64,000 nucleotides of DNA from Candidatus Freyarchaeum deiterrae (lineage in GTDB: Archaea; Asgardarchaeota; Jordiarchaeia; Jordiarchaeales; Jordiarchaeaceae), in assembly GCA_037305845.1 (NCBI GenBank), contig CP147778.1:3360001-3424000 (forward strand). Direction: 5' to 3'. This document shows positions 1 through 62,404 of this stretch, in pieces. A program made the translations under genes and the position numbers. The notes under the pieces are model-generated. The model did not search any database, was not told the DNA's origin, and saw nothing but the letters and a program-made list of their open reading frames with translations. Each line of letters opens with the position of its first letter. Position 1 is the stretch's first letter.

Positions 1-170
1 GCATGAGTCAAAATAACCGCATCCACAGCGTCAATCTTGTCCAGACTCGGATACTCCGTAGTCTCACCCAGCTTTAAGCCGCAATCCACTAGAATCTTCG
101 TTTCATCCAATTCCAGCAAGATGCCACTACGTCCAATCTCGCGAACCCCGCCTAGAAAACGGATTTCCAA
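1..170 (-). CDS. MBL/beta-CASP ribonuclease, N-terminal part (runs off window start; absent from ORF track)
   Basis: Manual translation from TTG at 170: MEIRFLGGVREIGRSGILLELDETKILVDCGLK...DAVILTHA, matching the GGxxEIGRS, DCG and THAH motifs. GGTGA SD upstream. Confidence 0.85.
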   Translation of the reverse strand, partial: MEIRFLGGVREIGRSGILLELDETKILVDCGLKLGETTEYPSLDKIDAVDAVILTH

Positions 171-49048: not shown

Positions 49049-51433
49049 GTGAGTGTTTTGAAGGGTGTTGAAAAAAAGGAGAAGCCGAATATTGAGTTGG
49101 CTGTAGCGATCCAAAATCGCACAGCAGAACTGACCAGAGCCAACGAGGCGTTGAAGGCAGAGATTGAAGAACTCAAACAGGCAGAGAAAAAATTACATGA
49201 AGCCTCGCTTTATCCCAGAAGCTTGATTGAGGCAAGCCTCGACCCTCTAGTCACGATTAGCGTGGAAGGTAAGATAACTGATGTGAACAGGGCCACAGAA
49301 CTGGTTACAGGCTTATCCCGCGACCAGCTGATTGGCCAAGACTTTTCTGATTACTTCACTGAACCTGATAAGGCGAGAGCTGGATACCAGCAAGTCTTCA
49401 CAGAAGGCTTTGTGAGAGATTACCCTCTCGCGATACGTCATATATCAGGGAGAATCACCGAAGTCCTCTATAACGCCACCGTTTACAAGAACGAGGCTGG
49501 TGAGATTCAGGGAGTATTCGCCGCCGCTAGGGACATCACTGAACGAAAGCAGGCGGAAGAGAAGTTGCATGCTGCGTCACTCTATGCGAGAAGCCTCATT
49601 GAAGCTAGCCTTGATCCTTTAGTTACTATTAATGCTGAGGGGAAGATAACTGATGTGAATAAAGCTACTGAAGAGGTGACCGGAGTTCCTCGTGAACAAC
49701 TGATAGGCAGCGATTTCTCTGATTATTTTACAGAACCAAAGAAGGCGGAGGAAGGTTACCTGAAAGTCTTCACGGAAGGCTTAGTTAGAGATTATCCCTT
49801 AGCGATAAGACACAAATCTGGAAAGATTACCGATGTCTTGTATAATGCAACTGTATATAGGAATGACGCAGGAGAGATTCAGGGTGTGTTTGCAGCTGCA
49901 AGAGATATTACAGAGCGTAAACAGGCAGAAGAGAGGGTACGGGAGCAAGCTGAACTTTTGGACGAGGCGCATGACGCTATTACTGTGCGAAACCTAGAGA
50001 ATTGCATAATATACTGGAATAAGGGCGCTGAGCAGATGTACGGTTGGACAGCAGAGGAGGTGATAGGCAGGAAGGCAAATGAGTTCCTCTACAAGGAGGA
50101 CGCTCCACCGTCGGCTGGGGCGCTGAAAACTGTAATTGAGAGAGGGGAATGGAGCGGAGAGCTGCATCAGGTAACGAAGGATGGAAAGGAAATCATAGTT
50201 GATAGCCACTGGACGCTGATGCGTGACAGCGAGGGAAACCTAAAATCAATAATGGCCATTAACACTGACATTACCGATAAGAAAAATCTTGAAACACAGA
50301 TGCTCAGGGCTCAGAGGATGGAGAGTATAGGCACCCTCGCAGGCGGAATCGCCCACGACCTGAACAATGTACTCACCCCGATAACGCTGTCATTGCAATT
50401 GTTACAGGAGAAGCTCACGGACAATAAAGATAAGGAAATACTTGAAATCCTACAGAATAGTGCACAACGCGGATCCGACTTAGTGAGGCAGGTTCTACTT
50501 TTTACAAGAGGAATCGAAAGCGAGAGAAAACCTATCCAACCCAGATCCCTCATCACGGAAGTTGAGAAGATCATGGAAGAAACATTTCCAAAATCCATTG
50601 AGATCAGAAGAAGAATACCCTCTGATCTTTCAATCATTTCCGGAGATGCAACACAGCTACATCAGGTTCTGATGAACCTGTGCGTAAATGCTCGTGACGC
50701 TATGCCCGACGGAGGCATCCTGGAAATCTCTGCCGATAACGATTACATTGATGAAGAATATGCTCGTCTGCATCTCGAGGCAAAAGTGGGCAACTACGTC
50801 GTCATCTCTGTATCGGACACTGGTACGGGTATGCCCTTGGAGGTTCGCAACAGGCTTTTCGAACCATTCTTCACCACGAAAGAGCGGGGCAAAGGAACAG
50901 GGCTGGGTCTATCTACAGCTCTAGCGATTGTGAAAAACCACGGCGGCTTCATAAACGTGTACAGCGAAGTTAGAAAGGGCTCCGTATTCAAAGTCTACCT
51001 GCCCGCCATAATAGAAACCGAACCTATGAGAGCAGAAAAACTCCAGCCTAAACGTGTCAAGGGACATGGCGAATTAATTCTTGTTGTGGATGACGAATCC
51101 CCAATTTGTAATGTGACCTGCTCTATCCTTGAATCTAATGGGTATAAAGCGATTTCAGCTAAAGATGGGGCGGAAGCAGTAGCGGTCTTCGTGGAAAACA
51201 AAAATGCGGTCAAGATCATCCTCATGGATATGGCGATGCCCATTATGGACGGAGCGATGGGCATAAAAGCAATACGAAAAGTGGACCCCAAAGCTAAGAT
51301 CATCGCGGTCAGTGGATTGCCTGCAAACGGGAAGCTTGCTAGCGTTTCGGAATCGGTGAATGCTTTCCTAGCCAAGCCCTACACGACTGAGAGACTACTG
51401 AAAACCATAGATGATATTCTAAACGTTGAATAA
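49049..51433 (+). CDS. PAS-PAS-PAS hybrid sensor histidine kinase with receiver domain
   Basis: Two near-identical PAS repeats, AHDLNN H-box, NARDAM, GTGLGL, LVVDDE/MD..MP/KP receiver. Confidence 0.95.
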   Translation: MSVLKGVEKKEKPNIELAVAIQNRTAELTRANEALKAEIEELKQAEKKLHEASLYPRSLIEASLDPLVTISVEGKITDVNRATELVTGLSRDQLIGQDFSDYFTEPDKARAGYQQVFTEGFVRDYPLAIRHISGRITEVLYNATVYKNEAGEIQGVFAAARDITERKQAEEKLHAASLYARSLIEASLDPLVTINAEGKITDVNKATEEVTGVPREQLIGSDFSDYFTEPKKAEEGYLKVFTEGLVRDYPLAIRHKSGKITDVLYNATVYRNDAGEIQGVFAAARDITERKQAEERVREQAELLDEAHDAITVRNLENCIIYWNKGAEQMYGWTAEEVIGRKANEFLYKEDAPPSAGALKTVIERGEWSGELHQVTKDGKEIIVDSHWTLMRDSEGNLKSIMAINTDITDKKNLETQMLRAQRMESIGTLAGGIAHDLNNVLTPITLSLQLLQEKLTDNKDKEILEILQNSAQRGSDLVRQVLLFTRGIESERKPIQPRSLITEVEKIMEETFPKSIEIRRRIPSDLSIISGDATQLHQVLMNLCVNARDAMPDGGILEISADNDYIDEEYARLHLEAKVGNYVVISVSDTGTGMPLEVRNRLFEPFFTTKERGKGTGLGLSTALAIVKNHGGFINVYSEVRKGSVFKVYLPAIIETEPMRAEKLQPKRVKGHGELILVVDDESPICNVTCSILESNGYKAISAKDGAEAVAVFVENKNAVKIILMDMAMPIMDGAMGIKAIRKVDPKAKIIAVSGLPANGKLASVSESVNAFLAKPYTTERLLKTIDDILNVE

Positions 51434-51694
51434 AAACATGATAGCTTCCGAGGTAGAAGAATACGGGGAAAGCGAAAAGACCTTGATATCTAATGATACG
51501 TAGAAAACTACCTTTAAATAACAAGGATTTCAGAGAACTTTAGGGCAGCTTTGGAAGAGTATTTTTAAAAAATCTTACATTTAAGAACTTGTGTAAATTT
51601 TTCTTAATTTATTGCAGGATTATTCAGTAAATTCTGATTTTTCAGAAAAGTTTAAATATTCTGTTTATTACTACTTTTCAATGAGGTTACCAAA

Positions 51695-51973
51695 ATGGTC
51701 AAAGAAGAAGATGCAAATGAAGCGTGTTGTACGCCAAAAGATATGGAATCAGGCTGCTGCAAAGTTGAGTCAGTAATAAGCATAGATGAAAGAGGACAGA
51801 TGATTCTCCCCAAAGATGTACGCGAAAAAGCAAACATTAAAGCCTTAGACAAATTAGCCGTAGTAAGTTTCGAAAAAAAGGGCAAAGTTAACTGTATTTG
51901 CTTAATTAAAGTTGAAAACCTCACAGAGATGGTAAAGAACATGCTCGGACCAGTGATGAAAGAGGTCCTATAA
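51695..51973 (+). CDS. Cys-rich AbrB-like protein (HgcAB-associated type) upstream of arsM
   Basis: CC...GCCKVESVISIDERGQMILPKDVREKA. Confidence 0.75.
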   Translation: MVKEEDANEACCTPKDMESGCCKVESVISIDERGQMILPKDVREKANIKALDKLAVVSFEKKGKVNCICLIKVENLTEMVKNMLGPVMKEVL

Positions 51974-52001
51974 AAAATAAAAACAAGAGGAATGCATCAA
52001 A

Positions 52002-52853
52002 ATGAAAGAAGAGGAAGTAAAGAAAGTCGTAAGAAAAAGCTACGCCAAAGTAGCCAAACAAGACAACTCTCGCCATGCTCCTACGAGTTCAAGCTCCTGC
52101 TGTGGAGGAAGCGGAAGTACTGATGATGCTGTTTCTGATTTTAGTAAACAGATAGGTTACACTGACGCAGAACTCAAATCGGTTCCAAAGGGAGCGAACT
52201 TAGGTCTCGGTTGCGGAAACCCTGTCGCACTCGCCTCCTTGAAAGAGGGCGAAACTGTCCTAGACCTTGGATCCGGTGCTGGCTTCGACAGTTTCCTCGC
52301 AGCGAATAAAGTCGGTGAGAAGGGAAAAGTTATCGGCGTGGACATGACACCAGAGATGCTTGAAAAAGCAAGAGAAAACGCTAGGAAAGCAAACTACACA
52401 AACGTAGAGTTCCGACTAGGCGAGATAGAGAATCTGCCAGCTGCAGACAACTCCGTTGACGTCATTATTTCAAACTGCGTAATCAACCTAGCACCAGACA
52501 AAGCAAGAGTTTTCGGAGAAGCATTCAGAGTACTTAGACCCGGAGGAAGGCTGATGGTCTCAGACATGGTGCTACTGAAAAACCTGCCAGACGAGATTAA
52601 GAATAGTATCGAAGCGTACACTTGCTGCATTGCCGGCGCAATCCTGAAGAACGACTACATAGAACTCATCAAAGATGCGGGATTTAAGGACGTTAAAATC
52701 ATGGATGAAACCGTTTTAACACCAGACGCAGTAGCTTGCAATCCATCAGGAGAAGAGACGTTTAAAATACCAAACACCTCCTCCCAAGAGGAATTAGAAG
52801 AAGCCGCCGTTTCCGTCAGCAGTATAAAAGTTAAAGGAGTAAAACCCAAATAG
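52002..52853 (+). CDS. arsM: Arsenite S-adenosylmethyltransferase
   Basis: [36 protein letters not shown]. Confidence 0.95.
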
Positions 52854-53075: not shown

Positions 53076-53693
53076 TTAGGCGATGTCTTTTTCTTTTAGT
53101 ATCTGCTTGCAGTTTGGACAGTATTTCTTCTCTTTTTTCCCTTTCGGCAGGTGGTTTCTGTGGCTCAGGGCTCCGCAGTAGGGGCACTTAACATGCAGGT
53201 CACCTAGAACAATGTCCTTGTTGCACACTGAGCACCGTGCTCTGGTCTCTCCGCAGTGTGGGCAGTATTCCGCGTTTTCGGGAATCTCGGAGCCGCAGAA
53301 CAAGCACTCTAATTTTGTCTTTATGTAACCAGAACCCTTGCTTATTGTTCTCGCGATATCTGTTGCGAGAGGTCTATACCTCTTAAAATGTTTATACCCG
53401 AAGTAAACCCGCAGACCGAGCAGAAAGTAAATCATAATAAAAATAGTACCTCCCAGAACAATCAGAACAGTAGCCAAGTTATCCGGTTGCATAGCCATGT
53501 AACCGAAAATAACTAGGGATTGAACAAAGGCATCTGGTCCAAATAAACTGCCAATGTATGGCGTAGCCACTTCAATAATACCAGTGTTAAACGAAAATTG
53601 TAGGCGTATGATAAAGATTATAGGAAATGCTACAGAAAGAAGAATGATTGCCATACCTACTACTCTTATGACTATCTTCTCTCTATCCTCCAT
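53076..53693 (-). CDS. Membrane protein with zinc ribbon and RING-type finger (Trp lost)
   Basis: TM segments; CLFC..CPHC; CSVC-x12-CPYC-x4-H-x2-H-x10-CPNC. Confidence 0.75.
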   Translation of the reverse strand: MEDREKIVIRVVGMAIILLSVAFPIIFIIRLQFSFNTGIIEVATPYIGSLFGPDAFVQSLVIFGYMAMQPDNLATVLIVLGGTIFIMIYFLLGLRVYFGYKHFKRYRPLATDIARTISKGSGYIKTKLECLFCGSEIPENAEYCPHCGETRARCSVCNKDIVLGDLHVKCPYCGALSHRNHLPKGKKEKKYCPNCKQILKEKDIA

Positions 53694-53987
53694 GTTTGCT
53701 CCCCGCTTTTGCAGCTTGGCTAATATTTGGTTAGGTTAACGTTATTAGCAATCCTCACGTTTTTCAACACTTTTTATAAGTATGTTATATTTTTTGTAAT
53801 CGATATTCAGTTTAAATGAAAGTATTTAGAAACTTATTAATAATTTTAATGTTTGAGGAAATATATCCGGCTTGGGTCTTATTCCAGATACTACCAGCTG
53901 TCAGCTAGAGTAATGTGTTTAATCCATTTACTTAAAAAAATTAAAATAAGGGAGAAAAAATTTTGTTCGTTTAAAGAAGAGGAAGTT

Positions 53988-55961
53988 CTAAGCGAGGTCT
54001 TCTTCTTTTAGTCTTTGCCTGCAGTTTGGGCAGTATCCCTTCACTTTTATCCACTCGAGTAGGTGGTCTCTGTGGCTCAAGGCTCCGCAGTAGGGACATT
54101 TAGTATACTGTTCCCCTGAAACGATGTCCATCTGGCACACCGGGCACTTGAGTCTGACTCCCCCGCAGTTGGGGCAGTGCTTCGCGTCCCCCGAAATCTC
54201 GGAGCCGCAGAACAGGCAACACCTCTTCCCGAGAGCGGGAGCGCATGAATCCAACCGACCCAGCTTCTTATCAATGGAAGCCAGCTTGGCGCTGTACTTG
54301 GTGTAAATCTCCGTGTACTCCCCGTGGGTAAGCTTTCCAGCATTAAAACGGGCGTTCGCCTCATCCATGAGGTCTCTGAGAGCCGCCCTCCGCGCCTCAA
54401 GTTCCCCCACCCGAACCTTGGTCTTGGGGAGCTTAACGCGCTTGGAAAAAATTAACGGCTGCGTTTCATAGTGAGGCATCGCCCCCCTAACCTCGGGCAC
54501 CCCCTCCTGCTCAGGGGCCTCCTCTCCAACTCTCCCAGAAGCAGCCGCCCGCTCATACGTGGTTGGACGCCGGGGAGCAGTTCCCCCATATCTGGTTCGG
54601 GCTTCCACCTCAGGAACCCGTTCTTCCCTACTGAGGTACTTCCTCCACTCATAAATGGCGTAGGCTGAGCCTGCCAATACGATCGTAAGCAATAAAACGG
54701 TTCCCCGACTAACTAAAGAATTTTGTGAATTCTGCAGAGAGTTGTAAAAGTTATACAACAGAAAAATAAACAAAGCTAGACCGTTTATAATGACTGTGTT
54801 ATTCTCAAGAGTGTTATTGTATGAATTAGAATCTATGGCGAAGCCGCTGACACAGAACCAGAAGTCTAAGGTCAAAGTGTTATCAGTAATCGTATTATAG
54901 GAGCTATAGTATAATCTGATGCCTATGCTGTTGTTGTTTGCGGTGTTACCAGAAAGAGTGTTGTACGAACTATTGTACAGTTGGAAGCCTAGCGAGTATA
55001 TGGCCGAAGTATACTCGCCGTTGTTGTTTGCGGTGTTACCCGAAAGGGTGCTGTATGAACTATCCCGCAGGTAGAAGTCAACGATACTGTGATTTGCAGT
55101 ATTGCCCGAAAGATTATTATTATTCGAGCTGGATCCTAGAAAGAAGCCTCCATTGACGTTGTTTGTGGCATTGTTTCCAGTAAGAGTATTATTGCTCGAA
55201 TTATATAGGTAGAAGCCAGCAATGGGGTTATTTGTTGCGGTGTTACCAGAAAGAGTGTTTAATGTGCTTTGGTCCATTAGGAAGCCGTTATTGTTGCTGT
55301 TTAGAGTGTTATTTGTAAAATTATTGTTAAAGCTATTAAACAGGCATAAGCCTTCGCGCCAGTTGTTGTTTGCGATGTTGTTTGAAAGATTGTTGTACGA
55401 GCAGCTGTCTAGGTAGAAACCGTAGTTGCCGTTGTTGTTTACAGTGTTTCCCGAAAGAGTGTTGTACGTGCCATTGTAAATGTAAAAGCCGTTGAACCTA
55501 TTCCAGACGGGGAAAGGTGTGCCGTTGTTGTTTGCGGTATTATTTGTAAGATTGTTGTTCGAGCAATTGTACAGGAAGAAGCCGCAGTCCCACCCTGTGA
55601 CTGTGACGTTAAAGATGGTTACATTTCTTCTGCCATTCAAAGAAAAGCCGTACCCACAATATAAAGTTCCAGGGCCTTGCACAGTGTATCCATTTCCGTC
55701 TATAACTATGTTGTCCGCTACTACATTTATTGTTTCAGAATAGTTTTGACTAAATGTAGTGTTTCCGTTGATGTCTAACTTTGGTCGAATGACCGTATTG
55801 GGATTCTGGGAGAAGCCCTGGATGTATGCGTTGATGAACGGGGCTGAGTTTTGGTTTTGGTTCTGGATTGAGGTGACCGCTGCGGTTGTTGTTGCTGTGA
55901 GGAGAATGGCTGCTATGATTAGTATTTTTAGGGTTTTCTTCCTTATCTTTACGCCTTTCAT
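53988..55961 (-). CDS. Receptor-like protein: NosD/parallel beta-helix ectodomain, TM, coiled coil, zinc ribbon, RING-type finger
   Basis: Signal peptide, many GFxL..S..NxL.GNxA.NN repeats, TM helix, CPVC-x12-CPYC-x4-HRDH-LLEW...CPNC. Confidence 0.85.
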   Translation of the reverse strand: MKGVKIRKKTLKILIIAAILLTATTTAAVTSIQNQNQNSAPFINAYIQGFSQNPNTVIRPKLDINGNTTFSQNYSETINVVADNIVIDGNGYTVQGPGTLYCGYGFSLNGRRNVTIFNVTVTGWDCGFFLYNCSNNNLTNNTANNNGTPFPVWNRFNGFYIYNGTYNTLSGNTVNNNGNYGFYLDSCSYNNLSNNIANNNWREGLCLFNSFNNNFTNNTLNSNNNGFLMDQSTLNTLSGNTATNNPIAGFYLYNSSNNTLTGNNATNNVNGGFFLGSSSNNNNLSGNTANHSIVDFYLRDSSYSTLSGNTANNNGEYTSAIYSLGFQLYNSSYNTLSGNTANNNSIGIRLYYSSYNTITDNTLTLDFWFCVSGFAIDSNSYNNTLENNTVIINGLALFIFLLYNFYNSLQNSQNSLVSRGTVLLLTIVLAGSAYAIYEWRKYLSREERVPEVEARTRYGGTAPRRPTTYERAAASGRVGEEAPEQEGVPEVRGAMPHYETQPLIFSKRVKLPKTKVRVGELEARRAALRDLMDEANARFNAGKLTHGEYTEIYTKYSAKLASIDKKLGRLDSCAPALGKRCCLFCGSEISGDAKHCPNCGGVRLKCPVCQMDIVSGEQYTKCPYCGALSHRDHLLEWIKVKGYCPNCRQRLKEEDLA

Positions 55962-56326
55962 GTTTTGCCCCCTTCTCTCATAGCGCGGTTAATATTTCGG
56001 CTCGGTTTGCGTTATTACTCATCAAGAGTGCTTCAACGTTTCTTATAAATGTGCTTTATGTTTTTGTGATTAATGTTAGTATTAATTGAAAATGATTTGG
56101 AACTTATTAATAACTTTAGTGTTTGAGGAAAGAGAGCCAGCGGAGTCTTATTTTATTTTGAGAAATTTCCAGTGTCAATGTAATGCATTAGAATTTAACA
56201 TAACTCAAGAAGCATAACTATTTTTTCTAGGTTTTAGTGATTGGTTCAGAAATTTAAATTAAATGAGAAATCCATTAAGATGAGTGATGAATAAAAAAAG
56301 AATAGTGGTTAAGAGGTGTTTCGGTA

Positions 56327-57067
56327 TTGGAGTTTTCGATTGCTCATGTTTCTGATTTTCATGTGGGTTCACCTGAGTTTATGCCCGAAAAGATTGTAAC
56401 CTGTATTGATGAAGTGAACGATTTATCCCCGGATTTAGTCGCTTTAACTGGGGATCTTACTATGTCTGGTTTTGAGAGAGAGTATAAGAAGGCTAAGGAG
56501 TACGTCGATGAGTTCAAAGCCAAGACCATTGTGATTCCCGGAAACCATGATGTCAGAGAAACTGGTTACACTTATTATGAGGAGTATTTTGGAGAAGCAA
56601 ACCAATTCGTGGACTTGGGTCCGGTAACTGTAATAGGAGTGGACAGCACTCTTCCAGACAATGATGAGGGCTGGCTGGGAAGGGAAAGAATCCAGTGGCT
56701 TAACGAGAATTTGGGGAAGGTGAAAGAGAAGGAGTTCCGAGTGGTCTTGGTCCATCACCATCTGATTCCGGTTCCGGGAACAGGCATGGAGAGAAACGAG
56801 TTAATAGACGCTGGGGATGTTTTATCCAGTCTGATTGCAAACAAAGTAAACCTTGCACTCTGCGGTCACAGGCATGTGCCCTACACTTGGAAATTGGAGA
56901 ACCTGATGGTGGTAACCTCGGGAACCGCCTGCACTGGATACGTGAGAGCCAGAGTACCGCAAGCCTATTTTATAATAAGCGTGAAGGAAAAATCCATGAA
57001 AATCTCCCTAAAGGAAGTAGGTGGCAAAGAAACAGTAGTGAGAAAAGTTCAATACAAGGAGGCCTAA
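56327..57067 (+). CDS. Calcineurin-like metallophosphoesterase (CpdA/Icc-like)
   Basis: SDFH, TGDLT, PGNHD, HHH, GHRH. Confidence 0.9.
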   Translation: MEFSIAHVSDFHVGSPEFMPEKIVTCIDEVNDLSPDLVALTGDLTMSGFEREYKKAKEYVDEFKAKTIVIPGNHDVRETGYTYYEEYFGEANQFVDLGPVTVIGVDSTLPDNDEGWLGRERIQWLNENLGKVKEKEFRVVLVHHHLIPVPGTGMERNELIDAGDVLSSLIANKVNLALCGHRHVPYTWKLENLMVVTSGTACTGYVRARVPQAYFIISVKEKSMKISLKEVGGKETVVRKVQYKEA

Positions 57068-57169
57068 GCGCTACAAGGAAGCAATGAATGCATATTTGAA
57101 AAAAATTGTTTGTAAAAATTTTTATTGTTACCTGCAGGTTTTCGTTTCCTCTGATCTCGTAGCCCTATT

Positions 57170-58006
57170 CTATCCAATTTTTAGGCATCTCATCGAAATT
57201 GAAGCGTAGTGGAATCCTTCATACGTGAATGTTAGCGGTTCATCCTTCTCCTGCAAAGCGATCACATATATCAACGGTAAATAGTGGTCAAGCGTTGGCA
57301 CCGCCATGTGAGCACTTCTACCCATGCTATTATAATTAATTAACTTCTCATGATTTCCGTCGATTAGATTCCTTTTCACTTTTTCATCGAACTCGACCGC
57401 CCAGTCATAAGGCGCCGCATCTATGTTCCGGAAATCAATTATTCCTAGGTTATGCACAATGTTGCCGCTCCCAATGATTAGAACCCCTCTTTCCCTCAGC
57501 TCAGCAAGCTCTTTTCCAATGTTGTAATAGTACTGTAAGGGCCTTGGGTGCCATTCATTGAAAGAGTAGTTGAGGCTCATCTCGAAAACCGGGATATCCG
57601 CTTTGGGATACATGTGGTGTAGGACAGTCCAGGAAGCGTGATCCAGCCCCCAATCGCTGTTACATTTAACCTGCACTGTTTTAACTGATTTCTCAAGAGG
57701 TTTGGCATACTGGGGCGCGCCGGGACTCGGGTACTTCATTTCGTATAATTCTTCTGGGAATCCGCCGAAGTCATGAATCGTCCTGGGCTTCTCCATGCAG
57801 GTAACATAGGTTCCATCAGTTAACCAGTGAGCGGAGACAACCATTATCGCTTCAGGCTGCGGCAGGCTCTTTCCCAGATTTCTCAAAGATTCAGTGAAAT
57901 CATTCTCCAAAATTACATTCATAGGTGAGCCGTGACCGATAAATAATGCAGGCATCCTTTCTGTTCTTGGAGATTTGTTTACATTCTTCCCCATCTTGTG
58001 AGTCAT
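57170..58006 (-). CDS. ygiD: Extradiol dioxygenase, LigB/YgiD (4,5-DOPA dioxygenase) family
   Basis: FIGHGSPMN, SAHW, IHDFGGFP, GLDHASW, GSGNIVHNL, PTLDHYLPL. Confidence 0.92.
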   Translation of the reverse strand: MTHKMGKNVNKSPRTERMPALFIGHGSPMNVILENDFTESLRNLGKSLPQPEAIMVVSAHWLTDGTYVTCMEKPRTIHDFGGFPEELYEMKYPSPGAPQYAKPLEKSVKTVQVKCNSDWGLDHASWTVLHHMYPKADIPVFEMSLNYSFNEWHPRPLQYYYNIGKELAELRERGVLIIGSGNIVHNLGIIDFRNIDAAPYDWAVEFDEKVKRNLIDGNHEKLINYNSMGRSAHMAVPTLDHYLPLIYVIALQEKDEPLTFTYEGFHYASISMRCLKIG

Positions 58007-58278
58007 TTCATCTCACCCTGCAGACCATAACATGGTACTTGCACACTTATGGAAATCCTAAACAAGTCAAGAACTCGATATTACTAATAATCACTTTTTA
58101 TTAGTTTTTAACTCTAACCCGATTTTTCACAGTAGCCTTTTTCCGTCGTTAGTAAATTATTATATTCATTTTTGGTATGTGATCCCGTTTTAGAAAAATA
58201 TTTAAGAGATAAAATAGGATAAGATAAAAAAAGAGCCTCTTATGAGAATGATGAGAATGGAAAATAGGAGGAGCTGAT

Positions 58279-58704
58279 TTGCCTCATAGACCTTCGGGAG
58301 TGACAGTTCTAGGCACTTTTATGATTATTTTAGGAGTTATCACCATTATTTGTGAATTTCTTTTTGTGTGGCCGGGTTTGCCTTATATACCCGTTATTAT
58401 TTATGAAATTCCTGTTTTAGTGGGGGAGAATTTACAATCCAATATTCCGATATTTATTCTCGGTAGTACGCTTTTGGCCGGTGCAGTGGGTCTGCTCAGC
58501 ATGACTGGTTGGGGCTACTATCTAGCTTTGACTTCTTCAATTATTCTGATTGCAGACTCTGCCATTTCATTCTTACTCTTTATCGCATCACATTTCTTGA
58601 TCCCTATACTTAGCATAATATTTCCATGTGGCCTGATTCTTGGAATAGTAACTCTCGCTTACCTTCTCAGTAAAGCAAAGTACGAGTACCCCATAGAATC
58701 CTAA
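58279..58704 (+). CDS. Four-TM 'RPSGV' membrane protein (RING-less paralog of 58922)
   Basis: RPSGVT...GLLSM..WGYY...YL...KYEYPI, stopping where the paralog continues. Confidence 0.75.
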   Translation: MPHRPSGVTVLGTFMIILGVITIICEFLFVWPGLPYIPVIIYEIPVLVGENLQSNIPIFILGSTLLAGAVGLLSMTGWGYYLALTSSIILIADSAISFLLFIASHFLIPILSIIFPCGLILGIVTLAYLLSKAKYEYPIES

Positions 58705-58921
58705 TTAGCAGGTACTCAAAATAGTTTCTTTAATTTGTTACTGATTAGCAGGGTTTCTGAAAGATTTCTGTTTGTGTTACAGCGTTTCCCTCTTTCGGTG
58801 TAAGTATTGACCTTTTATTTTTTGTGTATTTAATGCCTTTTTAGAAAATTATTTAAGAGATAAAATAAAATAAGAAGGAAGAAAGAACCCTCTTATGAGG
58901 ATGAATATGGGAGGAATGGAT

Positions 58922-59659
58922 TTGAGTTATAGACCTTCCGGAGTAGTAGTTATAGGGGTTTTCATGATTATTTTCGCAGTTTTAAACATTTTTTGGGCAA
59001 TTTTAATGATGCCTTTATCGGGTACAAGTTTGATTACGCTTTTTTCACCATTTACTTTAGGGGGATTATTGTCCTTTGGTTTGATGCTTACTACTAGTGT
59101 GATGCTCGTGGTTGGTGCGACTGGTCTGTTAAGCATGGCGCGTTGGGGCTACTATACCGGTTTAGCTGCTTCAATTGTTCTGATTGTATCCGCTGTTTTC
59201 TCTTTCTTTGTTGGGTTCGGATTCTTCTTAATTTCTATTGGTGGCTTAATTCTCGGAATAATAACTCTTACCTATCTCCTTACTGATGTAAAGTACGAGT
59301 ACCCAATAGACTTAAGGAGGGAGTACCCTGCAAGGTATGAATACCCCGAAAGGAGGAGGACGATGCCTGCCGCCAAGATTGTCAGCGTGCCAGAACCCAT
59401 TCCCGTCGCCATAAAGCCAAAACCAGATTGCCTGTACTGCGGCACCGAGATCCCCGAGGACGCCGAATTCTGCCCCCACTGCGGAGAGGCCAGGGTGAGA
59501 TGCCCAGTATGCAGCAAGGACATCGTTTCAGGAGACCGATTTGTAAAGTGCCCCTACTGCGGAGCCCTGAACCACAGAGAACACCTGCTAGAATGGATAA
59601 AGGTGAAAGGATACTGCCCAAATTGTAAGCGGAAATTAAAAGAAACAGACATCGCTTAA
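58922..59659 (+). CDS. Four-TM 'RPSGV' membrane protein with zinc ribbon and RING-type finger
   Basis: CLYC..CPHC; CPVC-x12-CPYC-x4-HREH-LLEWIKVKGY-CPNC; start TTG 58922 or ATG 58895. Confidence 0.85.
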   Translation: MSYRPSGVVVIGVFMIIFAVLNIFWAILMMPLSGTSLITLFSPFTLGGLLSFGLMLTTSVMLVVGATGLLSMARWGYYTGLAASIVLIVSAVFSFFVGFGFFLISIGGLILGIITLTYLLTDVKYEYPIDLRREYPARYEYPERRRTMPAAKIVSVPEPIPVAIKPKPDCLYCGTEIPEDAEFCPHCGEARVRCPVCSKDIVSGDRFVKCPYCGALNHREHLLEWIKVKGYCPNCKRKLKETDIA

Positions 59660-59931: not shown

Positions 59932-60369
59932 ATGACTTCTAGACCGGGTGGTGTCACTGCATTAGCTGTGGTCTTATTCATTATTGGTGTGCTTTTGTTT
60001 AGCTTAGCGACATACATGGGGTTTTCGCTTGCCCTTTCAACGATTCTAACGGAGAATATACAAGCTATTGCACCCTTTTTATTTGGTGTGTTTTACATAC
60101 CATCAGGGCTTCCAGCAAACATTTTTTTTCTCTATGTTTATACATTTTTATATGTTGAATTTCAATTGAATTTTGGTGTCTATCAAATGCAGACTGTGGG
60201 AATAGATATTGTGGCGATGATATATGTCTTTGCGGCTATAGGTTTATTCCGAATGAAGAGGTGGGGACGTTACCTTGCATTGATATTTGGAGTTGTTATG
60301 ATTCCTGCATTATTCGGAATAGTGGTAGTAGTTTACCTTATGGGCAGTGTAAAATACGATTTCGAATAG
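59932..60369 (+). CDS. 'RPGGV' membrane protein (RING-less paralog)
   Basis: SRPGGVT...GLFRMKRWG...YL..SVKYDFE. Confidence 0.75.
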   Translation: MTSRPGGVTALAVVLFIIGVLLFSLATYMGFSLALSTILTENIQAIAPFLFGVFYIPSGLPANIFFLYVYTFLYVEFQLNFGVYQMQTVGIDIVAMIYVFAAIGLFRMKRWGRYLALIFGVVMIPALFGIVVVVYLMGSVKYDFE

Positions 60370-61834: not shown

Positions 61835-62404
61835 TTAACCAAATACGTGTGTTGCCTGTGATGTAATTAGGGCGTTCTTCTTTTGGTAATCCCTAATTTT
61901 TGTTTTACACTTTACCATAGAAACAAGGTTACAATCGAGGCCTTTCAACTGCTCACCATCGCATTCGCAAACTTGTTTAAGCAATCTTTTACCCATGTAA
62001 GGGCAGGGCATTTTGGACAGCTCATTAATTATTGAATCGCCTACAGTCGTGTTAATATCCTCGGGATCCACAAAAAACTTTGGAAATAACTCCTTGTTCT
62101 TTTCCACAATATTCATTATGGAATCCTCAACTTTTCCCACAAGCTCCGGCTTCTCCGCGTCTGTTACTAGAACCAGATACCAGTCACTTTTCTTAATGGT
62201 GAAAGGCTTAATGTAAACGTTCATGTCTTTTAGCGAAATATGTCTGGGTGCTTCTCCGGTAACCTCTTTCCAGAACATCTGGGAGGCTGCGAAAACTCCT
62301 GAGACTAGGTCTGGATCCGCTTCAATGGAGCCCAGTTTTACGCTTATTGGGCAGAGTCCGTTGCTGTTTATTATGTATATGTTGTGTATGACCATCTCAC
62401 TCAT
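61835..62404 (-). CDS. Longin-like domain protein with Cys-rich C-terminus
   Basis: IHNIYIINSNGLC...DPDLVSGVFAA...F.KEV pattern; C-terminal CPY...C.C...C....C. Confidence 0.65.
   Translation of the reverse strand: MSEMVIHNIYIINSNGLCPISVKLGSIEADPDLVSGVFAASQMFWKEVTGEAPRHISLKDMNVYIKPFTIKKSDWYLVLVTDAEKPELVGKVEDSIMNIVEKNKELFPKFFVDPEDINTTVGDSIINELSKMPCPYMGKRLLKQVCECDGEQLKGLDCNLVSMVKCKTKIRDYQKKNALITSQATHVFG

Follow-up and report, generated by a model that had tools for sequence, protein, structure and literature searches.

Candidate membrane-tethered RING E3 proteins of the archaeal srfp family in Candidatus Freyarchaeum deiterrae

Asgard archaea are known to possess ubiquitin, E1, E2, a small soluble RING E3 and a ubiquitin-binding ESCRT-I. 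The RING protein (srfp) of the C. subterraneum ubiquitin operon is a proven E3, in which mutating I30, W58 or R69 impairs or abolishes activity (PMC5654768). In Helarchaeia the steadiness box of UEV-Vps23 is a substrate of an E1-E2-RING cascade (10.1101/2023.07.25.550441), and in Odinarchaeota steadiness boxes occur on both Vps23 and Vps28, a Vps23 dimer binding one Vps28 (PMC9192718). No membrane cargo or membrane ligase has been named for the Asgard ubiquitin system in the literature examined. Here we present a computational analysis of three genes from 64,000 nucleotides of the Candidatus Freyarchaeum deiterrae genome (contig CP147778.1, positions 3,360,001 to 3,424,000; hereafter the window), whose products of 205, 657 and 254 amino acids (aa) share one zinc ribbon-RING module. 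The 657- and 254-aa proteins are probably membrane-tethered RING E3s of the srfp family, candidates whose activity is predicted, and the 205-aa protein is probably an E2-blind variant of them.

A module of about 80 residues forms the C-terminal end of all three proteins. It is composed of a ribbon C-x2-C-x10-C-x2-C, a six-residue spacer and a finger C-x2-C-x12-C-x2-C-x4-H-x2-H-x10-C-x2-C, with all 12 zinc ligands intact in each. There are three instances of the strict pattern in the window and none of a looser one in 100 base shuffles, and the modules are pairwise 57–68% identical in protein and 73–76% in DNA. The Trp of an LLEW motif is found at W637 of the 657-aa and W234 of the 254-aa protein, the 205-aa protein having G185 instead, and the N-terminal parts gave no significant match to each other in BLASTP (best expectation value, E, 0.4). 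An earlier reading of this DNA, made from its letters without database searches (the sequence-only reading), had claimed the shared ribbon and C4H2C2 finger, the two tryptophans and the unrelated N-termini, all of which were borne out. Its layout of transmembrane (TM) helices stood for the four of the 254-aa protein (predicted here by hydropathy) and for the beta-helix with a TM anchor of the 657-aa protein, and the two to three helices given to the 205-aa protein were corrected to two. By hydropathy, each last TM helix is followed by three to five Lys or Arg in the next 15 residues, which indicates a cytoplasmic tail; the three proteins are likely to be membrane-anchored with the C-terminus in the cytoplasm.

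As the sequence-only reading had expected, ubiquitin, E1 and E2 are encoded in the genome, in two operons and together with JAMM proteases and ESCRT genes. Pfam searches returned three UQ_con, three ubiquitin and four ThiF matches. One operon is ordered small RING, ubiquitin, E2 and E1 (C1:1985076-1987569) and the other ubiquitin, E2 and E1 beside a JAMM protease; both operon E2s retain the HPN motif and the active Cys, and the third UQ_con match is UEV-Vps23, adjoining Vps28 (C1:1894254-1894928), with Snf7 and JAB genes also in the genome. Over 47 aa the window RING has 53% identity to the operon RING, a protein of 86 aa (E 1e-18 pairwise, 1.2e-16 in a genome search), and the C4H2C2 order is also found in RING genes adjoining E2 at 15 loci of relatives. 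Judged by sequence comparison, the window finger is a close paralogue of the small RING of the ubiquitin-E2-E1 operon. The equivalents of C. subterraneum I30, W58 and R69, assigned by position with no direct alignment, are V608, W637 and R648 in the 657-aa protein and V205, W234 and K245 in the 254-aa protein, and the spacing of 11 from Trp to Lys/Arg is that of the C. subterraneum srfp. A survey of 121 Asgard genomes gave module matches in 90 and E2 matches in exactly these 90, the tallies by family being identical; none of the 31 E2-less genomes (7 families) matches the module.

The family examined below was drawn from the best 150 library hits, 92 of which have the full pattern. From a 92-row alignment, AlphaFold2 (AF2) modelled the 254-aa module with a predicted local distance difference test (pLDDT) value of 86; the finger has strands at 46–48 and 55–57 and a Trp-bearing helix of 10 residues (58–67) between ligands 6 and 7. 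In a VIA search of 48,161 chains the 50 best matches were all RING- or U-box-containing, for example Prp19 (Z 8.7, root-mean-square deviation, rmsd, 1.5, 51 aligned) and RNF4 (Z 7.5, rmsd 2.1, 53 aligned), the Z values being middling singly and the match list uniform. The model superposes on RINGs at rmsd 1.1–2.2 Å and is zinc-free, by which the cross-brace geometry is only implied. The module profile matched RNF4, RNF24 and RNF126 of the PDB at E 1e-8 to 1e-7, with Arkadia included in the range up to 7e-7; zf-RING_2 matches 80 of the 92 family members, 91 of which have His as ligand 6. With the Prok-RING_1 family (PF14446, cut-off 29.1 bits) the 254-aa protein scored 29.1 whole and 35.9 as module, the 205-aa (24.7) and 657-aa (17.1) proteins and the operon RING itself (26.6) lying under the cut-off, and the ribbon of the 205-aa protein exceeds that of Zn_Ribbon_1. 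The structural and zf-RING_2 matches place the finger with the RINGs, as the sequence-only reading had done.

We propose that the module would be a mobile cytoplasmic cassette, made of a zinc ribbon and an operon-family RING and grafted onto different membrane proteins; it is regarded as mobile because the DNA similarity of the window copies extends past the stop codon. The RINGs of the 657- and 254-aa proteins would bind ubiquitin-loaded E2 via the Val between ligands 1 and 2, the Trp of the helix and the Pro that follows ligand 7, and the Lys/Arg after ligand 8 would prime ubiquitin transfer. The RING could ubiquitylate the tail of the protein itself or membrane proteins nearby, the membrane part presumably determining place and substrate, and proteins so marked would go to UEV-Vps23/Vps28 and ESCRT-III or be degraded. 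When the 254-aa module was docked to the operon E2, the predicted complex scored 0.47 against 0.00 for the best control, with contacts agreeing to at least 91% and a partner pLDDT of at least 82. In the benchmark of such complexes 58 of 80 solved pairs and 2 of 110 mismatched ones attained the mark; both of those mismatches did so at 0.60 or below, as did no more than 7 of the solved pairs. RING and E2 are a textbook pair, and the score may therefore reflect likeness; the E2 docking put forward in the sequence-only reading found weak support.

Some observations weigh against these proteins being srfp-family E3s. The active C. subterraneum srfp is described as RING-H2-like with a shifted ligand, and the comparison here is by position only. 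The co-occurrence with E2 is partly built in because the module profile also detects the operon RING, and kin genomes are not independent (the 31 negatives fall in only 7 families); its informative part is the absence of the module from all 31 E2-less genomes. Copies of the cassette turn over, as two broken ones in the genome indicate, and two hydrophobic segments precede the tail of the 657-aa protein, for which reason we infer its topology. Moreover, the first 35 Foldseek ranks were taken by IFT-A, GATOR2 and SEAC chains over about 80 columns (best IFT144/WDR19, TM score 0.63), and the SEAC RINGs of this best-matching type are structural, forming RING-RING heterodimers (PMC9646525).

From these last points it can be argued that the zinc ribbon and RING form mainly a structural dimerisation module, as in SEAC/GATOR2 and IFT-A, which links membrane proteins while ubiquitin transfer is absent or secondary. 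The profile matches WDR19 over positions 4–81 at E 8e-7 and MIOS, WDR24 and WDR59 at 2e-5 to 2e-4, the Atlas structure neighbours include WDR19/IFT121 clusters (all with TM scores <0.5), and Trp-less copies persist with all ligands intact, which dimerisation could explain. An Atlas feature search returned scores of 0.77 only. However, the E2-contact Trp is kept in 77 of the 92 homologues and replaced by Tyr in 9 more, the module was found in none of the 31 genomes without an E2, its RING is that close a relative of the operon E3 gene, and Cys-rich tandem fingers match readily by composition; we consider such a mainly structural role unlikely.

The 205-aa protein merits separate treatment, its closest full-length relatives retaining the Trp. 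The changes in its RING fall on 6 of 9 conserved helix columns and 0 of 25 elsewhere (hypergeometric p ~6e-5 by hand, the region having been picked post hoc), and with G185 and the six altered helix positions both the E2-contact Trp and the helix are absent. This member is probably not an active E3; it keeps the zinc ligands of the fold but would have lost the E2 surface, and on account of that loss we propose an inactive partner or decoy. Compensating frameshifts were ruled out as the cause of the Trp-less helix, the DNA alignment holding point substitutions only and no indel, and so was assembly error, given an identical protein in at least 8 further short-read assemblies and recurrence of the variant in P0161. 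The latter, from another metagenome, is the orthologue of the 254-aa protein (72% identical) and bears the same LPKG Trp-less variant. Its presence on two different membrane domains suggests a recurring allele that moved between them, and the recurrence, in two examples, favours a kept E2-blind form over random decay. A metagenome scan for further Trp-less copies gave weak distant matches only. Among relatives of the 205-aa protein, P0001, P0002, P0158 and P0159 have two tandem zinc ribbon-RING modules, and in P0002 and P0158 the first RING is Trp-less and the second retains the Trp.

The module profile has 14 matches in the genome, soluble forms and two interrupted copies among them; genomes of this genus have 5–14 each, on varied N-termini. 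The same RING tail is found on four further surface proteins of large size (1036–1690 aa), behind DUF2341, beta-helix or Ig ectodomains. The 92 full-module homologues comprise 21 with a large ectodomain and TM, 36 with small TM domains and 35 without TM, that is, TM helices are predicted in 57, and the closest related loci are in Freyarchaeota and Jordarchaeum genomes. These varied N-termini, the interrupted copies, the DNA similarity past the stop codon and the orthologue of the 254-aa protein that bears the other RING variant would also suit fast birth-and-death shuffling of a small cassette, with many copies, the Trp-less included, neutral or decaying. We hold this to be quite improbable, as the zinc ligands are complete in all three window proteins, the changes in the RING of the 205-aa protein all lie within a single helix and are seen again in another metagenome, and the large ectodomain-TM-RING proteins keep the Trp in 21 of 21. 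Least credible by far is that the finger is a PHD-type or generic zinc reader of peptides or nucleic acids with no tie to ubiquitin, for although its C-x2-C-x4-H spacing resembles PHD and RING-CH and Pfam DZR scores above the RING models, no PHD appears among the 50 best structural matches or the 25 Pfam families listed as commonest (absence from a list not being proof), the Trp takes the position typical of RINGs, four residues past ligand 6 within a helix of 10 residues, and not that of PHD fingers, two before ligand 7, and the finger is paralogous to the operon RING and co-occurs with E2.

Returning to membrane-tethered E3s as the preferred interpretation, only the 657-aa protein, one of the three, has an ectodomain, and the ectodomain-TM-RING layout that the sequence-only reading had drawn for the family does not extend to the other two. 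It has 21 N-x-S/T sequons, the last at residue 387, and its N-terminus is shared by 16 proteins of the genome, 13 of them RING-less and 3 with RING. As this ectodomain family is mostly RING-less, the ectodomain looks like a general glycosylated surface module, and the surface-sensing receptor of the sequence-only reading stays a conjecture. Most RING-less relatives stop a few residues past a single TM helix, and their having the same short pre-TM segment favours a single membrane pass for the 657-aa protein; AF2 draws segments 388–406 and 419–437 as a helical pair, which does not decide the number of passes. A HL[S/T]xF motif stands about 25–40 residues ahead of the TM helix in the four larger paralogues, the 657-aa protein being without it, and resembles a GPS autoproteolysis site. 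Two further surface proteins (C1:3320053-3323268 and 3520939-3522984) have a similar pre-TM segment but different cytoplasmic tails of ~280 residues that are related to each other (longin-like by eye), other tails thus being swapped onto the same anchors.

Ahead of its module the 657-aa protein has a helical hairpin, overlooked in the earlier reading as were the two RING-less 4-TM paralogues that flank the 254-aa gene. The hairpin is 30% identical over 64 aa to the C-terminus of UEV-Vps23 of the same genome (E 2e-9 pairwise, 6e-5 in a genome-wide phmmer search) and was modelled by AF2 at pLDDT about 90. In a VIA search yeast ESCRT-I took ranks 1–3 (Z 8.7, rmsd 3.2, 59 aligned), tied with generic hairpins, and there was no match to Pfam Vps23_core (PF09454). 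This hairpin recurs ahead of the module in at least 5 other library proteins. By analogy it may be a ubiquitin acceptor or an ESCRT-I dock. A 256-aa soluble protein (C1:2740814-2741584) also has a C-terminal steadiness-box-like hairpin (phmmer E 0.002 to that of the 657-aa protein). A bolder version would make the 657-aa protein a true ubiquitin-signalling receptor, in which binding or clustering of the beta-helix activates the RING and the hairpin plugs into ESCRT-I in the place of eukaryotic Vps37, with Trp-less copies as heterodimeric regulators acting via a zinc ribbon-RING that is itself the Asgard antecedent of the IFT-A/GATOR2 ZnF-RING; taken together, this appears rather doubtful.

The membrane domain of the 254-aa protein belongs to a small family with RING-less 4-TM paralogues on both sides of the gene and about nine in the genome. 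The 141-aa paralogue is a tandem duplicate of this domain, with the upstream DNA duplicated too, and in P0018, from another organism, seemingly the same TM family (by eye) is joined to hairpin and module. Three EYP repeats lie at the junction of 4-TM domain and tail (window 59291-59344), and the RING-less paralogue stops just past the first.

With reference to Table 1, the upstream element of the 205- and 657-aa genes is 74% identical over 169 nt by blastn and also precedes two RING-less surface genes; one interrupted module copy (125136-125318) sits just downstream of another copy of this element (124504-124707). Promoter and terminator scans were at chance level, and the intervening metallophosphoesterase and LigB genes have no apparent connection to the module. 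Next to the 205-aa gene (window 49049-52853), with no link seen, are genes for a hybrid histidine kinase with PAS, for a small regulator-like product and for a Cys-rich methyltransferase that by eye resembles arsenite methyltransferases. A 189-aa protein at window 61835-62404 has no Pfam match, an N-terminus that is longin-like by eye and several C-terminal Cys. Near the second ubiquitin operon (C1:1912021-1914578 and 1922891-1923454) are four more RING-like genes, among them one for a soluble zinc ribbon-RING whose helix is shortened and Trp-less.

Table 1. Features of the three module-bearing genes and of related sequences (window positions; genome positions are prefixed C1)
Feature	Position	Strand	Basis and remarks
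205-aa open reading frame (ORF)	53076-53693	-	ORF list, Pfam, hydropathy; 2 TM helices, zinc ribbon, Trp-less RING, probably E2-blind
205-aa TM helices	residues 11-29 and about 76-98		hydropathy
205-aa zinc ribbon, residues 130-147	53253-53306	-	Pfam Zn_Ribbon_1
205-aa RING, residues 154-195	53109-53234	-	8/8 zinc ligands retained
205-aa altered E2-binding helix, residues 183-190	53124-53147	-	L>P, E>K, W>G, I>K, V>E, G>K
AT-rich upstream element common to 205-aa and 657-aa genes	53791-53871	-	second copy 56061-56141; 75% over 81 nt
657-aa ORF	53988-55961	-	surface protein: signal/anchor, beta-helix ectodomain, TM, disordered linker, steadiness-box-like hairpin, zinc ribbon, RING
657-aa signal peptide or signal anchor, residues 11-29	55875-55931	-	after Lys/Arg-rich start; hydropathy
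657-aa right-handed beta-helix ectodomain, about residues 60-385	54807-55784	-	Pfam Beta_helix E 5e-37, NosD E 3e-35; DNA repeats D1/D3
657-aa pre-TM hydrophobic segment, residues 388-406	54744-54800	-	probably interfacial rather than membrane-crossing
657-aa TM helix, residues 419-437, then basic cluster	54651-54707	-	hydropathy
657-aa helical hairpin, Vps23-steadiness-box-like, residues 518-566	54264-54410	-	sequence and structure searches
657-aa zinc ribbon 582-599 and RING 606-647	54021-54218	-	V608, W637, R648
RING-less 141-aa 4-TM paralogue	58279-58704	+	43% identity, E 3e-22; repeats D4, D5, D7, D8
254-aa ORF	58895-59659	+	Met10 a possible start; 4-TM domain, linker with three EYP repeats, zinc ribbon, RING
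254-aa zinc ribbon 179-196 and RING 203-244	59429-59626	+	V205, W234, K245
RING-less 145-aa distant member of small TM family	59932-60369	+	pairwise E 7e-6
Four larger RING-tailed surface proteins	C1:141999-145109, 345941-351013, 364676-368650, 3009707-3013444		profile search
Two interrupted module copies, in-frame stops	C1:312779-313012 and 125136-125318		profile search

Overall, as membrane-tethered RING proteins, these gene products are direct candidates for the missing membrane step of the Asgard ubiquitin system. The locus offers a test set in one complete genome, with two intact tails, a natural Trp-less tail, RING-less paralogues, and the cognate E1, E2 and ubiquitin together with Vps23/Vps28. 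If the proteins are active, E3 expansion by fusion of RINGs to varied membrane domains would have arisen in Asgard archaea in parallel to, or before, the eukaryotic expansion. A literature search, which left out the 2011 paper defining prokaryotic RING families, found no description of ectodomain- or TM-fused RING proteins in Asgard archaea. The Pfam text for Prok-RING_1 reportedly mentions TM helices in bacterial members, and a prokaryotic TM-RING fusion may not be new in principle.

The sequence-only reading had likened the proteins to PA-TM-RING or MARCH ligases, and membership in either class fails. MARCH proteins have an N-terminal RING-CH ahead of the TM helices and a C4HC3 finger, whereas the window RING is C-terminal, as in HRD1/gp78-type ligases, with His as ligand 6. 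Several TM helices followed by a cytoplasmic C-terminal RING are shared with HRD1/synoviolin and gp78/AMFR, and the profile matches the synoviolin and AMFR RINGs; unlike in HRD1, gp78 and MARCH, the TM domains belong to small archaeal families that include RING-less paralogues, and no homology to eukaryotic TM domains was found. With PA-TM-RING proteins (RNF13, RNF43/ZNRF3, plant RMR) only the 657-aa protein shares the order of signal, ectodomain, one TM helix and cytoplasmic RING, and the module profile weakly matches the ZNRF3 and RNF13 RINGs. However, its ectodomain is a beta-helix and not PA (no PA family was found in the window proteins by Pfam at E 0.1), its finger is C4H2C2 and not C3H2C3, and its RING lies about 170 residues from the membrane behind hairpin and zinc ribbon; the relation is one of analogy, not orthology.

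The C-termini of IFT144/WDR19 and of GATOR2/SEAC (MIOS, WDR24, WDR59) likewise consist of a four-Cys finger and then a RING, with TM scores up to 0.63 and full-module profile matches, but the window proteins are without beta-propeller or alpha-solenoid, have membrane anchors and conserve the E2-contact residues, and the resemblance is a likeness from which common ancestry need not follow. The hairpin of the 657-aa protein has the two-helix form of the ESCRT-I Vps23/Vps28 steadiness box (PMC9192718, PMC10936438) and 30% identity to the Vps23 box of its own genome, and differs in being embedded in a surface protein just ahead of the zinc ribbon-RING and in lying under the Pfam threshold. With the archaeal srfp E3s of C. 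subterraneum (PMC5654768) and Helarchaeia (10.1101/2023.07.25.550441) the window proteins share the RING fold, the E1/E2/ubiquitin context, the E2-contact hydrophobic residue, the Trp and the linchpin Lys/Arg, and with the operon srfp of their own genome the same 53% identity and the identical C4H2C2 order; they differ from the archaeal srfp E3s in standing outside the operon, behind TM helices and with a zinc ribbon ahead, in about a dozen copies, one of them without the E2 helix.

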